Source: a virus (Duplodnaviria > Heunggongvirae > Uroviricota > Caudoviricetes). Taken from it: DNA of 4,075 nt. The stretch is from IMG/VR virus record IMGVR_UViG_2778261316_000010. One strand, given 5' to 3'. The notes beneath the pieces were generated by a model. The model was not told the origin of the DNA. It saw nothing but the letters and a program-made list of their open reading frames with translations, and made no database searches. Below, piece after piece: positions 1-4,075 of this stretch; position 1 is the stretch's first letter; every line of letters begins with the position of its first letter. Position numbers and translations under genes: made by a program.

Positions 1-45
1 ATAAAACCGGGTGATGCAAAAGTAGCCATTTGATTCACAAGGCCA

Positions 46-74
46 TTGACGCATCGCCCGGTTAGTTTTAACCT
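46..74 (+). promoter_or_regulatory. Candidate sigma70 promoter for thrW
   Basis: TTGACG at 46-51, 17-nt spacer, TAACCT at 69-74, about 40 nt upstream of the tRNA 5' end. The -10 match is weak and no TSS can be confirmed from sequence. Confidence 0.3.
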
Positions 75-114
75 TGTCCACCGTGATTCACGTTCGTGAA
101 CATGTCCTTTCAGG

Positions 115-190
115 GCCGATATAGCTCAGTTGGTAGAGCAGCGCATTCGTAATGCGAAGGTCGTAGGTTCGACTCCTATTATCGGCACCA
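115..190 (+). tRNA. thrW: tRNA-Thr (anticodon CGU)
   Basis: 76-nt sequence GCCGATATAGCTCAGTTGGTAGAGCAGCGCATTCGTAATGCGAAGGTCGTAGGTTCGACTCCTATTATCGGCACCA folds as a cloverleaf: acceptor GCCGATA/TATCGGC, D stem GCTC/GAGC, anticodon stem GCGCA/TGCGA with loop TTCGTAA (anticodon CGT), T stem GTAGG/CCTAT with TTCGACT loop, encoded CCA. It matches enterobacterial thrW as I recall it, the known attachment site of P22-type integrases. Confidence 0.95.
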
Positions 191-204
191 TTAAAATCAA
201 TAAG

Positions 205-1368
205 TTACACATCATTAGTACCTTCCTTATTTTTTGACTGGGACAAATTTGGGACCGATGGGTTCAGGATCGAGTCTATTTGCCGTGCGTGTTCGGTAAG
301 GTGATTAGGTGCGAGGTGAGCATATCGACGAACCATTTCGATAGACTCCCAGCCTCCCATTTCCTGTAACACTGACAACGGGACACCGGCTTGAACCAGC
401 CAACTTGCCCAGGTGTGTCTCAAGTCATGAAATCTGAAATCATCAATACCAGCTCGTCTCAGCGCCGCTTTCCAGGCTGTGTTTGCGTCATACCGCATCT
501 TCCTGACTGTTGGCGCTTTCGTTCCGTCTGGTTTGGTACAGCTTTCCTTGTACACAAATACCCAACGGTGATGATTCCCGATTTGTTTTTTCAATACGCG
601 ACATGCAGTATCATTCAGCGCAACGCCAATTGCGCGGTTTGATTTACTCTCTTCCGGGTTTATCCATGCCACCCGGCGCTGCATATCTATTTGTTGCCAT
701 TCAAGGTTGATGATGTTCGAGCGTCTTAAGCCTGTTGCCAGTGCAAATTCAACAACAGACTTTAATGGCTCCGGACATTCATCAATCAGCCTTTGTGCTT
801 CATGGGGCTCCAGCCAGCGGATCCGTTTATTCTTTGGTTGAGGCACTTTAATAATTGGTGCCTTATCCAGCATTTTCCATTCACGCTCTGCGGCTCTTAG
901 TAGGGCCTTTATAAATGAAAGATGCGTAGCCTTCGTTGCAACGGACGCTGGTTTTGGCGTGTATTCTGGAACAGGTTTCCCTTTTTTTCTGCATGCTTCT
1001 GCCCTGAGTTTCCAGTTTTCCTCATGACGCCGGTTCGTCATTTTCTGCATTGCTGAATAAATTTTTGATTCAGTGATGTCTCTTAGTTGCATCCCTGCGA
1101 AATGTTGAAGCCAGAATCCGATCCGGCTTTTGTCATCGTCCAGTGATTTCTTATGTGCTTTCTCTTCGAGCCACCTGACACACGCTTCCTCAAACGTCAT
1201 ATCAGGTATTTCACCAAGTTTGCTGACCCGCCATGCTTCAGCCTTTAGCTTGTCATGGAGCTCTGTCGCCTGCCTTTTGTCCTTTGTTCCAAGAGACTGT
1301 TTAAATCTTTTACCGTTCGGCAATGTGAAACTGGCGTACCATATTTCACTTCTGCGGAAGAGTGACAT
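205..1368 (-). CDS. int: Phage tyrosine integrase (site-specific recombinase), P22 Int-like
   Basis: 387-aa ORF starting [31 protein letters not shown], with GAGGAAA ribosome-binding site about 7 nt upstream of ATG 1368. C-terminal catalytic domain has the tyrosine-recombinase HxxR box ([10 protein letters not shown]) and the tyrosine nucleophile context (MVRRYAHL). It ends 15 nt from the tRNA 3' end, the classic tRNA-int arrangement. Resemblance to P22 Int is from memory. Confidence 0.95.
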
Positions 1369-1595
1369 TTTCTTTCCTCTGTTATGCCATCACCCGCGCT
1401 CACCTTGATAGTATGCAGCGGAGACTGAAGCGCCGCAATGCAGGCTTGTCGCGTTGTGAGGTAAGGAGATTTTGGTTTAGTGGGGTCTTTGCGTGTTGCC
1501 TGTAGGCGGCCTGTTCGTATCCAGTTGGTGGCGGTTGGTCTGGATATCTTAAGAAACTGACAGGCCTCATCGAGTGTGAGGCTGTATGATTCCAT
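1245..1595 (-). CDS. xis: Excisionase (Xis), P22 Xis-like
   Basis: 116-aa product from ATG 1595 ([31 protein letters not shown]...), preceded by GAGGT. It has an N-terminal HTH typical of excisionases and overlaps the int start by about 124 nt, as in lambda and P22. The ORF track's 126-aa version uses an upstream GTG without a convincing ribosome-binding site. Confidence 0.85.
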
Positions 1596-1845
1596 GGTTA
1601 CCTCTGCTTTTTGAACGCATGTCACGTAACTTCTTAATGTGTTCTGCCGTTTCGATCTCTTCTGCTATCCGATCTGCATCAGCTTTATTCACAGGTTCAA
1701 AGTCATGATTAAAGCGGAACATGCTGGCGATACATGTTCTGCCTTTTCGGATGTAGTGAACTTTGTTGTGGGTAGAACGCAGGATTTTGCAGGGAGTGCC
1801 GTGGTGGTCGACGTACCAGGTGTTAGGAAAAATGATTCTGAACAT
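1567..1845 (-). CDS. Hypothetical phage protein (92 aa), exo-xis region
   Basis: ATG at 1845 preceded by GAGGTG. It overlaps the xis start by 29 nt and is co-oriented with the operon. No family recognised from sequence. Confidence 0.65.
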   Translation of the reverse strand: MFRIIFPNTWYVDHHGTPCKILRSTHNKVHYIRKGRTCIASMFRFNHDFEPVNKADADRIAEEIETAEHIKKLRDMRSKSRGNHGIIQPHTR

Positions 1846-1892
1846 TTTTACACCTCAGTTGGACGATGTTGAAATTTGCTGCTTTGAGGCCA

Positions 1893-2111
1893 TCACAATC
1901 CCCATTGTTTGTTCTTAAGTTCGATCTCCTCCTGGCAACTTGCACAAGTCCGACAACCCTGAACGACCAGGCGTCTTCGTTCATCTATCGGATCGCCACA
2001 CTCACAACAATGAGTGGCAGATATAGCCTGGTGGTTCAGGCGGCGCATTTTTATTGCTGTGTTGCGCTGTAATTCTTCAATTTCTGATGCTGAATCAATG
2101 ATGTCTGCCAT
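1893..2111 (-). CDS. TraR/DksA-family C4 zinc-finger protein (lambda Orf73-like RNA-polymerase-binding regulator)
   Basis: 72-aa product with two CxxC pairs in the spacing of the TraR/DksA zinc ribbon (HCCECGDPIDERRRLVVQGCRTCASCQEEIE). Size and position in the leftward early operon match phage TraR homologues. Confidence 0.85.
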   Translation of the reverse strand: MADIIDSASEIEELQRNTAIKMRRLNHQAISATHCCECGDPIDERRRLVVQGCRTCASCQEEIELKNKQWGL

Positions 2112-2160
2112 CTTCCATTAATCCCTGAATTGTTGGTTAATACGCTTGAGGGTGAATGCG

Positions 2161-2189
2161 AATAATAAAAAAGGAGCCTGTAGCTCCCT
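2161..2189 (-). terminator. Probable Rho-independent terminator between orf71 and the TraR-like gene
   Basis: Minus strand reads AGGGAGC-TACAG-GCTCCT followed by TTTTTTATTATT: a GC-rich 5-7 bp stem, 5-nt loop and U-rich tract, 22 nt after the orf71 stop. Position is analogous to lambda tL terminators. Confidence 0.45.
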
Positions 2190-2209
2190 GATGATTTTGC
2201 TTTTCATGT

Positions 2210-2425
2210 TCATCGTTCCTTAAAGACGCCGTTTAACATGCCGATTGCCAGGCTTAAATGAGTCGGTGTGAATCCCATCAGCGTTACCGTTTCGCGGTGC
2301 TTCTTCAGTACGCTACGGCAAATGTCATCGACGTTTTTATCCGGAAACTGCTGTCTGGCTTTTTTGATTTCAGAATTAGCCTGACGGGCAATGCTGCGAA
2401 GGGCGTTTTCCTGCTGAGGTGTCAT
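2210..2425 (-). CDS. Hypothetical phage protein (71 aa)
   Basis: MTPQQENALRSIARQANSEIKKARQQFPDKNVDDICRSVLKKHRETVTLMGFTPTHLSLAIGMLNGVFKER. ATG at 2425 overlaps the TGA of the upstream 27-codon ORF (ATGA), suggesting translational coupling. The ORF track's 104-aa version needs a TTG start inside the methyltransferase gene and is not preferred. Confidence 0.6.
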   Translation of the reverse strand: MTPQQENALRSIARQANSEIKKARQQFPDKNVDDICRSVLKKHRETVTLMGFTPTHLSLAIGMLNGVFKER

Positions 2426-2505
2426 TGAACAAGTCCCATGTCGGCAAGCATAAGCACACAGAATATGAAGCCCGCTGCCAGAAAAATGCATTCCGTGGTT
2501 GTCAT
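2422..2505 (-). CDS. Candidate small hydrophobic peptide (27 aa), not in ORF track
   Basis: ATG at 2505-2503 overlaps the methyltransferase TGA stop (ATGA) and has GGGAGG 4 nt upstream. Product MTTTECIFLAAGFIFCVLMLADMGLVQ has a single hydrophobic helix-length core. Its TGA overlaps the orf71 ATG. Coding status is inferred from this coupling geometry only. Confidence 0.45.
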   Translation of the reverse strand: MTTTECIFLAAGFIFCVLMLADMGLVQ

Positions 2506-3059
2506 GCAGCCTCCCGACGGGCAAGAATCCTTGAGCCGAACGCCATCAACTCTCCACGATCAACGGTCGTAAAGTGGCAGTGTGTACGGGGGTATGGGTG
2601 CCAGATAATGAGCATCGAGCCTTTATTATTTCCACTGACGGGTTTCTCAGTGAGTGGGTTAATAAATGCCAGTCGTCCTGCCGTGATGAATCTGACCTCA
2701 CTGGCGGTTTGTATCGCTTCATGAAACCATCCGACAGATGTGTCAGCAGGCAATAACATTACACATCCCACACTACTGAATTTGTTTTCAGTGGCTGCCT
2801 TTTTCACAAAAGGGGAAATATTGCTGTATGGTGGATTCAACCAGACATAACCAGAGGCATATCCCATTGCTTCAGGCCATGAAGTGGTTAATGTGTTCTG
2901 CTCCTGTGAGATAAAAAGCCGACATAGTCGGTTTTTTTCGCTGGCGGCAGCATCAAGTTGAAAAACGAACTCTGCATTAAGCGCAGCAAAAATCTCTGGT
3001 GGTGTGCGCCAGCTGTCGCGATGTTCGGCAGGAGTATTGCTTCCGGTGAAATCAGTCAT
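2502..3059 (-). CDS. Phage-type DNA N6-adenine methyltransferase (Dam family, orphan)
   Basis: 185-aa product with the N-terminal WRTPPEIF...FVFQLDAAAS block and catalytic motif IV NPPY (GYVWLNPPYSNI), characteristic of the phage Dam N6-adenine methyltransferase family. GGGGG ribosome-binding site 4 nt before ATG 3059. No adjacent restriction endonuclease gene. Confidence 0.88.
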   Translation of the reverse strand: MTDFTGSNTPAEHRDSWRTPPEIFAALNAEFVFQLDAAASEKNRLCRLFISQEQNTLTTSWPEAMGYASGYVWLNPPYSNISPFVKKAATENKFSSVGCVMLLPADTSVGWFHEAIQTASEVRFITAGRLAFINPLTEKPVSGNNKGSMLIIWHPYPRTHCHFTTVDRGELMAFGSRILARREAA

Positions 3060-3213
3060 ACAGCCCCCGTTTATTATTTATCTCCTCAGCCAGCCGCTGT
3101 GCTTTCAGGGGATTTCGGATAACAGAAAGGCCGGGAAATACCCAGCCTCGCTTTGTAACGGAGTAGACGAAAGTGATCGTGCCTACCCGGATATTATCGT
3201 GAGGATGCTTCAT
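3052..3213 (-). CDS. Small phage protein (53 aa), lambda orf60a-like by position; not in ORF track
   Basis: ATG at 3213-3211 overlaps the exo TGA stop (ATGA) with GGGGAG 8 nt upstream. Product [53 protein letters not shown]. Its stop overlaps the methyltransferase start. In lambda the gene after exo (orf60a) overlaps the exo stop the same way; similarity is by position, not verified. Confidence 0.55.
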
Positions 3214-3488
3214 CGCCATTGCTCCCCAAATGCAAAACCAATTTCAGCTAGTGCCTCGTCCATTTTTTCGATGAACTCCGGCACCATCTCGTCAAAACTC
3301 GCCATGTACTTTTCATCCCGCTCAACCACGACATAATGCAGGCCTTCACGCTTCATACGCGGGTCATAGTTGGCAAAGTACCAGGCATCTTTTCGCGTCA
3401 CCCACATGCTGTACTGCACCTGGGCCATGTAAGCCGACTTTATGGCCTCGAAACCACCGAGCCGGAACTTCATGAAATCCCGGGAGGT
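3210..3488 (-). pseudogene. exo: Truncated exo (lambda Red-alpha exonuclease), C-terminal ~90 codons only
   Basis: Translation ...[92 protein letters not shown] is near-identical to the C-terminus of lambda Exo as I recall it. Upstream the frame has no start codon back to a stop at 3585-3587, similarity is lost, and the first ATG (3473) is preceded by CCTCCC rather than a Shine-Dalgarno. The N-terminal ~135 codons are absent. Confidence 0.85.
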
Positions 3489-3878
3489 ACTGTAATCGAC
3501 AGCTGGTCCAGTATGGTGTTTTTGAAGTTCAACGGGGCGAAATTTTCTGCCTCTGATTACCCTGTGCTGGCGAAAGTGTTTCCTTCACTGGTATTACCTG
3601 AAGCCCGCGGTGATTTCATTCGTATCTGGGATGACGGGCGAGGTGCCGATGGTGGTCGCGAATTATTAAGCTGGCAGGAAGCTACAAACTTTTCTCAGTT
3701 TGCCGGGAATATAGGCGGAGGTGCGGGACACACAATTAACTTTCATGATGGCATCGCCGGAAATCAGCCAGGATTTTCACGATTTAATTTCACCAGTAAC
3801 TCTGTGGGTGATGGTGTGAATTTTGTTGCTGTCAGACCGCGAAATATTGCATTTAACTTTCTTGTGAGGGCTAAATAA
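3489..3878 (+). pseudogene. C-terminal fragment of a phage side tail-fibre gene
   Basis: Plus-strand translation ...[55 protein letters not shown]... carries the tail-fibre collar signature (CNGA..S...YP.L ... LPD.RGRFIR.WD.G.G.D.GR...S.Q.DA). Only about 120-130 C-terminal codons are present and there is no credible start or ribosome-binding site; the ORF-track start at 3336 lies antisense to exo. Left boundary is approximate. Confidence 0.7.
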
Positions 3879-4000
3879 TGAAACCTGTTTTTGATGAAAA
3901 TGGGCTGGCTACAGTGCCGGGCGATATGCGTTGTTTTTATTATGATGCTGAAACATCTGAGTATACGGGCTGGTCTGATGAATATATTAATACTGGCGTA
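3878..4000 (+). pseudogene. Tail-fibre assembly gene, N-terminal 41 codons, interrupted by IS1
   Basis: ATG at 3878 overlaps the tail-fibre TAA (TAATG). MKPVFDENGLATVPGDMRCFYYDAETSEYTGWSDEYINTGV matches the N-terminal pattern of caudoviral tail-fibre assembly proteins (compare lambda Tfa ...IKIYNLLAGTNEFIGEG). The frame then runs into IS1 sequence at 4001. Confidence 0.65.
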
Positions 4001-4023
4001 GGTAATGACTCCAACTTATTGAT
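4001..4023. repeat. IS1 terminal inverted repeat (IRR)
   Basis: GGTAATGACTCCAACTTATTGAT, the canonical IS1 right inverted repeat as I recall it. The 9 bp before it (3992-4000, ACTGGCGTA) would be the target-site duplication if repeated at the other IS1 end. Confidence 0.85.
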
Positions 4024-4075
4024 AGTGTTTTATGTTCAGATAATGCCCGATGACTTTGTCATGCAGCTCCACCGA
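4016..4075 (-). CDS. insB: IS1 transposase InsB, C-terminal end (partial)
   Basis: Minus-strand translation of 4075-4019 gives SVELHDKVIGHYLNIKHYQ then TAA, the known C-terminus of IS1 InsB. The rest of the gene is outside the window. Confidence 0.85.
   Translation of the reverse strand, partial: SVELHDKVIGHYLNIKHYQ

Follow-up and report, generated by a model that had tools for sequence, protein, structure and literature searches.

A lambda orf73 allele of the TraR family in a recently truncated lambdoid prophage of Escherichia coli

An intact open reading frame (ORF) in a broken prophage raises two questions: what its protein does, and whether that protein is made at all. Both are posed by a short minus-strand ORF in the window, that is, the whole 4,075-nucleotide stretch of DNA analysed here. 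The ORF opens with an ATG at 2111, closes with a TGA that ends at 1893 and is uninterrupted, as the original prediction, made from the sequence alone, had stated. The 72-aa product (MADIIDSASEIEELQRNTAIKMRRLNHQAISATHCCECGDPIDERRRLVVQGCRTCASCQEEIELKNKQWGL) is named WP_033554594.1 in RefSeq ('TraR/DksA family transcriptional regulator').

A degraded prophage at thrW

The window is 100% identical to the E. coli chromosome NZ_CM194533.1, and its setting is a degraded SfI-like lambdoid prophage at thrW. The gene order in the chromosome starts from proA, followed by thrW, and all protein-coding genes from thrW to the truncated exonuclease gene (exo') lie on the minus strand. Read from 5' to 3' on that strand, the order is exo', orf60a-like, dam, orf61-like, the terminator t2, orf73, DUF4222, xis and int (Table 1). 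The synteny of orf73 matches that of phages SfI, 933W and lambda, and the gene occupies the position of lambda orf73, with orf61 on one side, the ea22-type slot on the other and t2 upstream. The prophage had been described as cryptic, and the map bears this out: what is left of exo is joined to part of a tail-fibre gene, and tfa is interrupted by IS1. The promoter pL, nutL, N and the repressor gene are absent from the remnant. The layout around exo' and the tail-fibre fragment is the pattern expected of one internal deletion extending from the middle of exo to the tail-fibre gene.

Table 1. Features of the window, in order of position
Feature	Position	Strand	Basis
tRNA-Thr (CGT), thrW; prophage attachment site	115..190	+	ARAGORN and RefSeq tRNA-Thr
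Tyrosine integrase, SfI-like	205..1368	-	PF00589, E=5e-48
Excisionase-type HTH protein	1245..1595	-	PF12728; phrog_2907 'excisionase', E=9e-52
DUF4222 protein, gene downstream of orf73 (ea22 slot in lambda)	1567..1845	-	PF13973, E=2e-19; phrog_285
orf73 allele, TraR-family protein with predicted binding in the RNA polymerase secondary channel	1893..2111	-	Family matches, lambda identity, RefSeq
Weak Shine-Dalgarno region (AGGGA 2126-2122; GGAAG 2116-2112, abutting the ATG)	2112..2126	-	Duplex with 16S 3' end
Intrinsic terminator 't2' of lambda and phi24B, between orf61 and orf73	2161..2189	-	Terminator scan, RNA fold
orf61-like ORF, long form of 93-104 aa (RefSeq 2210-2425)	2210..2524	-	phrog_303, E=5e-36; 933W homologue of 93 aa
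Phage Dam-type N6-adenine methyltransferase	2502..3059	-	PF05869, E=2e-56
orf60a-like DUF1317 protein, includes terminator-like 't1' (3149-3127)	3052..3219	-	PF07026, E=3e-33
exo 3' fragment, lambda-type pseudogene; upstream pL operon deleted	3210..3488	-	RefSeq 'exonuclease, incomplete'; homology to intact prophages ends at 3489
Deletion junction between exo' and tail-fibre gene, microhomology of at most 2 bp	3488..3489		exo homology up to 3489, tail-fibre homology from 3488
Tail-fibre gene, C-terminal fragment	3489..3879	+	RefSeq 'phage tail protein, frameshifted, incomplete'
Tail-fibre assembly gene (tfa), 5' fragment, IS1-interrupted	3879..4001	+	RefSeq; IS1 end starts at about 4003

The 3' 25-mer of thrW is repeated 9.4 kb downstream (L001 12166-12190 and 21558-21582), and the second copy looks like attR, the far end of the island. 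Between the two copies lie the prophage remnant, which includes a pinE invertase gene and alternative tail-fibre ends, as well as a GIY-YIG gene, an AraC-family gene and a fragment of an integrase-core (transposase-type) gene. CP4-6-like genes (ykfI/yafW and others) lie beyond the second thrW copy, indicating that elements are arranged in tandem at thrW. The IS1 element (window 4003-4075; L001 16017-16714) has its transposase gene on the orf73 strand, about 1.9 kb upstream in the direction of transcription.

Several neighbours of orf73 differ from their annotation or from their lambda counterparts. The integrase start given by RefSeq (TTG at 1323; 372 aa, Shine-Dalgarno pairing of -2.9 kcal/mol) is probably too short, and the alternative ATG at 1368 (387 aa, -6.0 kcal/mol) matches the 1164-nt int of phage SfI. 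An extra A within an A-run in lambda (A7 versus A6; L002 3213-3525) splits the orf61-like ORF, which is continuous in the window, into the 61-aa orf61 and an unannotated 60-aa ORF. Judged by these sequences, lambda orf61 seems to have arisen by a frameshift in the longer form seen in 933W and the window; its truncation had already been remarked on (PMC8614690). The Dam-type methyltransferase gene sits in the orf61/orf60a slot, in which lambda and 933W have orf63 (DUF1382).

The orf73 product and its relatives

The product matches Pfam family PF01258 (zf-dskA_traR; 34.2 bits against a gathering score of 24.9, E=2.5e-8) and, over residues 1-70, PHROG 54 ('DksA-like zinc-finger protein'; E=4.5e-25). 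Its best matches among solved structures, which are nearly full length, are to F-plasmid TraR in complexes with RNA polymerase (RNAP) (5w1s, E=7e-6; 6n57, E=1.2e-5). The dN/dS ratio across the first 61 codons is 0.0-0.28 among eight phage alleles of orf73. A chance ORF is ruled out by the family matches, the dN/dS values and the identity with lambda. A single-sequence AlphaFold2 model of the protein is of low confidence (pLDDT 58.6, pTM 0.30); its layout of a helix (6-32), a loop and a second helix (57-70) fits TraR and was not relied on.

The protein has the residues that published work singles out as important to TraR and Orf73 function (PMC9239242, PMC6970531, PMC8614690). In a three-way alignment of the window protein, lambda Orf73 and F TraR, the columns D3, D6, A8, C35, C38, E44, R46, R47, C56, C59, E64 and K68 are invariant. 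The 72 residues align end to end with the 73-aa TraR. The DxxDxA tip is present as M-A-D3-I-I-D6-S-A8, with columns unchanged relative to TraR and lambda Orf73, and the zinc motif CxxC-17-CxxC is made up of C35/C38 and C56/C59, which align to TraR C37/C40/C58/C61. The globular domain carries E44-R45-R46-R47-L48, in which E44, R46 and R47 correspond to TraR E46, R48 and R49; the ExxRL form of the ExxRK motif is common to the window protein and lambda Orf73. In the C-terminal helix (residues 57-70, predicted at low pLDDT), E64 and K68 are the aligned counterparts of TraR E66 and K70, within a tail that is unlike that of the assayed lambda protein. The alignment to TraR and lambda Orf73 that had been proposed as a check thus places both the four-Cys motif and the acidic N-terminal tip in register. 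Together with PF01258 and PHROG 54, it upholds the assignment to the TraR/DksA-like zinc-finger proteins and narrows it to an allele of lambda Orf73.

Lambda Orf73 is encoded in the exo-xis region and is also called TraR-lambda and Orf2310. The lambda reference record has a gap between ea22 and orf61, and the 73-aa ORF found there (L002 2893-3114, minus strand) is Orf73. It is identical to the window protein over amino acids 1-61 and 92% identical overall, with the same six cysteines, DxxDxA tip and ExxRL motif. Both genes lie at the same place in the leftward early operon, and the upstream leader, the terminator t2 and the orf61 neighbour are shared at about 99% nucleotide identity. The lambda operon has the promoter and antitermination system that are deleted in the remnant.

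From orf61 to the end of codon 61 of orf73, leader and terminator included, the window and lambda hardly differ in DNA sequence; beyond that point homology stops. The break falls inside codon 62 (window 1893-1930 covers codons 62-72). The last 11 residues are EEIELKNKQWGL in the window protein (72 aa) versus EDLELISKQRGSK in lambda Orf73 (73 aa), and the downstream gene encodes a DUF4222 protein in the window whereas it is ea22 in lambda. The two differences go together across phages: the 72-aa tail EEIELKNKQWGL accompanies DUF4222 in SfI, in phi458 (in which int is shown and the genes between are unannotated) and in the window, and the 73-aa tail EDLELISKQRGSK accompanies ea22 in lambda, 933W and YYZ-2008. 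The simplest reading of this covariation is a mosaic recombination boundary within the 3' end of orf73, in the part that would encode the helix contacting beta Si1.

Shigella phage SfI, which integrates at thrW, encodes a DksA-like zinc-finger protein (gp31) that, like the phi458 protein, has 72 aa and the tail EEIELKNKQWGL. The SfI and phi458 proteins are 94-99% identical to the window protein, from which they differ by 1-4 substitutions in the N-terminal helix and linker (H27Y, A29T, I30V) and in the globular domain (V49A). The SfI gene order (DksA-like, DUF4222, xis, int) is that of the window, and int of phi458 is in the matching position. SfI and phi458 are complete phages whereas the window holds a remnant.

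More distant members of the family share the architecture of the protein and differ in sequence or size. F-plasmid TraR (PDB 5W1S, 6N57/6N58) has the same three elements, and its D3, D6, A8, C4 zinc motif, R48/R49 and C-helix residues E66/K70 have conserved counterparts in the window protein. However, the two proteins are only 32% identical, F TraR does not contain the two extra cysteines (C36 and C53) that the window protein shares with lambda Orf73, and its gene lies in a conjugation operon whereas the window gene is of a type found in phage early operons. E. coli DksA has in common with the window protein the C4 zinc-finger domain (PF01258), an acidic tip and the predicted binding site in the secondary channel, but it is a 151-aa protein with a coiled coil that needs ppGpp, whereas the window protein has a single N-terminal helix. 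The 72-aa protein does not qualify as DksA proper, and the NCBIfam scan returned no DksA model at E<=0.01.

Expression signals and the age of the deletion

The original prediction placed the gene downstream of a probable terminator, and t2 is a real intrinsic terminator. At 2189-2171 on the minus strand, it consists of an 8-bp GC-rich stem and a 3-nt loop followed by TTTTTTATTATT, with a tail reaching 2161; the hairpin and U-run lie 60-78 nt upstream of the orf73 start codon. The element is 100% identical in lambda. Bloch et al. predicted t2 and listed the same sequence, and lambda mRNA levels fall across it (PMC4195576). The t1 sequence is given in the same paper, which is the only source of the name 't2'; no open-access source was found that gives a historical name (possibly tL3). 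Both t1 and t2 stand between any upstream source of transcription and orf73, and since N is absent, t2 should block read-through into the gene.

A 31-aa ORF (MNMKSKIIRELQAPFLLFAFTLKRINQQFRD) at 2118-2213 on the minus strand spans t2 and the orf73 leader, and the underlying DNA is conserved in lambda; SfI has a 29-aa 'hypothetical protein' annotated at the matching place (L005 605-694). In Shigella phage POCJ13 (L009), the region upstream of orf73 is unrelated, yet a GC hairpin and T-run (AAAGGAGCTTCGGCTCCTTTTTT) are present about 20-45 nt 5' of the gene, which suggests that terminator-gated, N-dependent expression of orf73 may be a conserved feature.

A promoter scan of the minus strand of the window found no sigma-70-like promoter reaching 9/12. 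A relaxed scan of 2112-2600 (490 nt upstream) returned a single candidate, TTCACC-16-AACAAT, at 8/12. A BPROM promoter, 'p1' (-35 TCATCA, -10 TTTTATTAT), has been predicted to overlap t2 (PMC4195576), and the p1/t2 sequence is unchanged in the window. In the hexamer scan p1 is below 8/12, and it fails the relaxed criteria on spacer length and on its -35 match. The ribosome-binding site that had been credited to orf73 exists as a pairing of AGGGA with the anti-Shine-Dalgarno sequence, but it is weak, with a dG of -4.9 kcal/mol versus -7.2 to -9.4 kcal/mol for four neighbouring genes.

The deletion that separated orf73 from its promoter is young. The exo/tail-fibre junction occurs in 1 of 5426 complete E. 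coli genomes, and 76 other genomes match window positions 1-3489 and then run on into full exo. One of the intact prophages, in NZ_CP102488.1, is 99.9% identical over 1-3489, continues with bet, gam, kil, the repressor gene and replication genes, and encodes the identical WP_033554594.1. The truncation is therefore recent and strain-specific, and orf73 is intact because there has been no time for decay, not because it was kept. Selection for retention in the remnant, which the original prediction had implied in calling the gene retained, is ruled out by the single occurrence of the junction and the 99.9% identity of the flanking DNA to an intact prophage. The gene itself is widespread: related copies are found in 3312 of the 5426 genomes (3309 at a coverage of at least 80%), or about 61%, and all sampled E. 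coli copies are annotated as TraR/DksA family.

These observations bear on the proposal, considered unlikely, that the remnant expresses orf73 and that its product has been domesticated to restrain host rRNA transcription independently of ppGpp. Expression would come from a private promoter adjacent to t2, possibly a stress-responsive one, or by read-through from IS1 or from the antisense tail-fibre DNA. BPROM p1 does lie at exactly the t2 sequence, and after H2O2 treatment of phi24B the mRNA of orf73/ea22 rose disproportionately, above that of the upstream genes (PMC4195576). The IS1 transposase gene upstream is on the orf73 strand, and a TraR homologue of phage VP882 mediates growth arrest. 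Against this, p1 does not reach 8/12, the -10 of the sole 8/12 candidate is not conserved in lambda (AACAGT there), and no promoter-like site was found on the minus strand in the scan of the whole window. Transcripts entering from upstream would meet t1 and t2, with N and nutL gone. The Shine-Dalgarno pairing is weak, and the lambda protein is strongly growth-inhibitory: it slows host growth, and derepression of pL in a defective lysogen lowers the plating efficiency about 10^4-fold (PMC9239242), so that constitutive expression would be costly. The intactness of the ORF is no signal of selection either, since the deletion is confined to one genome that is 99.9% identical to an intact prophage.

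A broader conjecture, regarded as very unlikely, is that a weak stress-responsive promoter at or just after t2, of the kind hinted at by the H2O2 response of phi24B, could allow E. coli strains that carry decayed lambdoid prophages, in their thousands, to make a ppGpp-independent regulator of the RNAP channel that brakes host growth. As a related part of this conjecture, the covariation of the Orf73 tail with the downstream gene might reflect a partner protein, after the QisA-TraR pair of VP882. Comparison of VP882 gp60 with the orf61-like ORF (E=0.19) and with the DUF4222 protein (E=0.016 over 30 aa at 23% identity) gave no significant match and lends the partner idea no support.

With pL, nutL, N and the repressor absent, two terminators upstream, no convincing promoter, a weak Shine-Dalgarno region and a product that would be toxic if strongly expressed, orf73 is most likely silent in the remnant. 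The anatomy of the locus does not support the suggestion that the gene is expressed from the lysogen and affects rRNA and stress promoters.

Predicted action on RNA polymerase

The lambda protein was purified and tested in 2022, when it was shown to compete with DksA for RNAP and to bind in the secondary channel (PMC9239242). Its inhibition of rrnB P1 (IC50 about 50 nM) and of rpsT P2 requires no ppGpp; the protein is as potent as TraR in inhibition, complements a dksA-null strain and loses its activity upon the substitutions D3N and D6N (PMC9239242). The same study showed that lambda orf73 is repressed in the lysogen and transcribed from pL during lytic growth, after loss of the repressor, and that Orf73 raises the burst size and increases phage yield 3- to 4-fold (PMC9239242). 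In the cryo-EM structures of TraR with RNAP, the N-terminal helix reaches through the secondary channel to the active site, the zinc domain contacts the beta' rim helices and Si3, and the C-terminal helix contacts the beta lobe-Si1 (PMC6970531). The experiments that had been proposed for the window protein, namely alignment, in vitro transcription from rrnB P1 and growth upon ectopic expression, are thus already published for the lambda protein.

That the window protein is a TraR look-alike without a role in RNAP regulation, either through its divergent C-terminal tail or through disturbance of the zinc domain by the extra cysteines C36 and C53, is exceedingly improbable. The tail (residues 62-72) does depart from that of lambda Orf73 in the beta Si1-contacting helix, but it is the normal allele of the functional phages SfI and phi458 and retains the invariant E64 and K68, and purifying selection is seen across alleles. 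The extra cysteines may affect folding, and Orf73, unlike F TraR, gives little or no activation of the promoters tested (PMC9239242); however, the same cysteines are present in lambda Orf73, which inhibits as strongly as TraR. The score against NCBIfam TIGR02419 (C4_traR_proteo) is below the cutoff (53.5 bits against 59.7, E=2.7e-14), but the validated lambda Orf73 (54.7 bits) is also below it while F TraR scores 80.5 bits, which shows that the cutoff shuts out the whole lambda subgroup and not the window protein specifically.

The reading that the ORF is an allele of lambda orf73 of the TraR branch, encoding a protein that binds the RNAP secondary channel, and that it is a silent passenger of a recently deleted SfI-like prophage is considered probable. 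With 61 of 61 N-terminal residues identical and the effect shown for the lambda protein, we infer with high confidence that the mechanism would be the same as that of lambda Orf73. The N-terminal helix would enter the secondary channel and bring D3 and D6 of the DxxDxA tip close to the active site. The globular Zn ribbon (C35, C38, C56, C59; R46/R47) would sit against Si3 and the rim helices of beta', and the C-terminal helix would touch the beta lobe-Si1. The three contacts jointly would destabilise open complexes at rRNA and ribosomal protein promoters in the absence of ppGpp. In an intact phage, orf73 would be a delayed-early pL gene behind an intrinsic terminator, made only after loss of the repressor and N antitermination, and Orf73 would then slow host growth and raise the burst size. 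In the prophage of the window, the loss of the segment from the middle of exo to the tail-fibre gene, and with it of pL, nutL, N and the repressor, would leave orf73 intact and silent.

The gene itself is already known: it has a RefSeq annotation, and the biochemistry and physiology of its lambda counterpart have been worked out, as has its structural basis by homology to the TraR-RNAP cryo-EM structures. The locus offers a caution, in that an intact ORF in a cryptic prophage is no evidence of retention or of expression; here, truncation took away both the antitermination system needed to pass t2 and the one promoter documented for the gene. If the gene were expressed nevertheless, prophages would commonly carry a protein that imitates the stringent response in its effect on host rRNA synthesis, a prospect of moderate interest.
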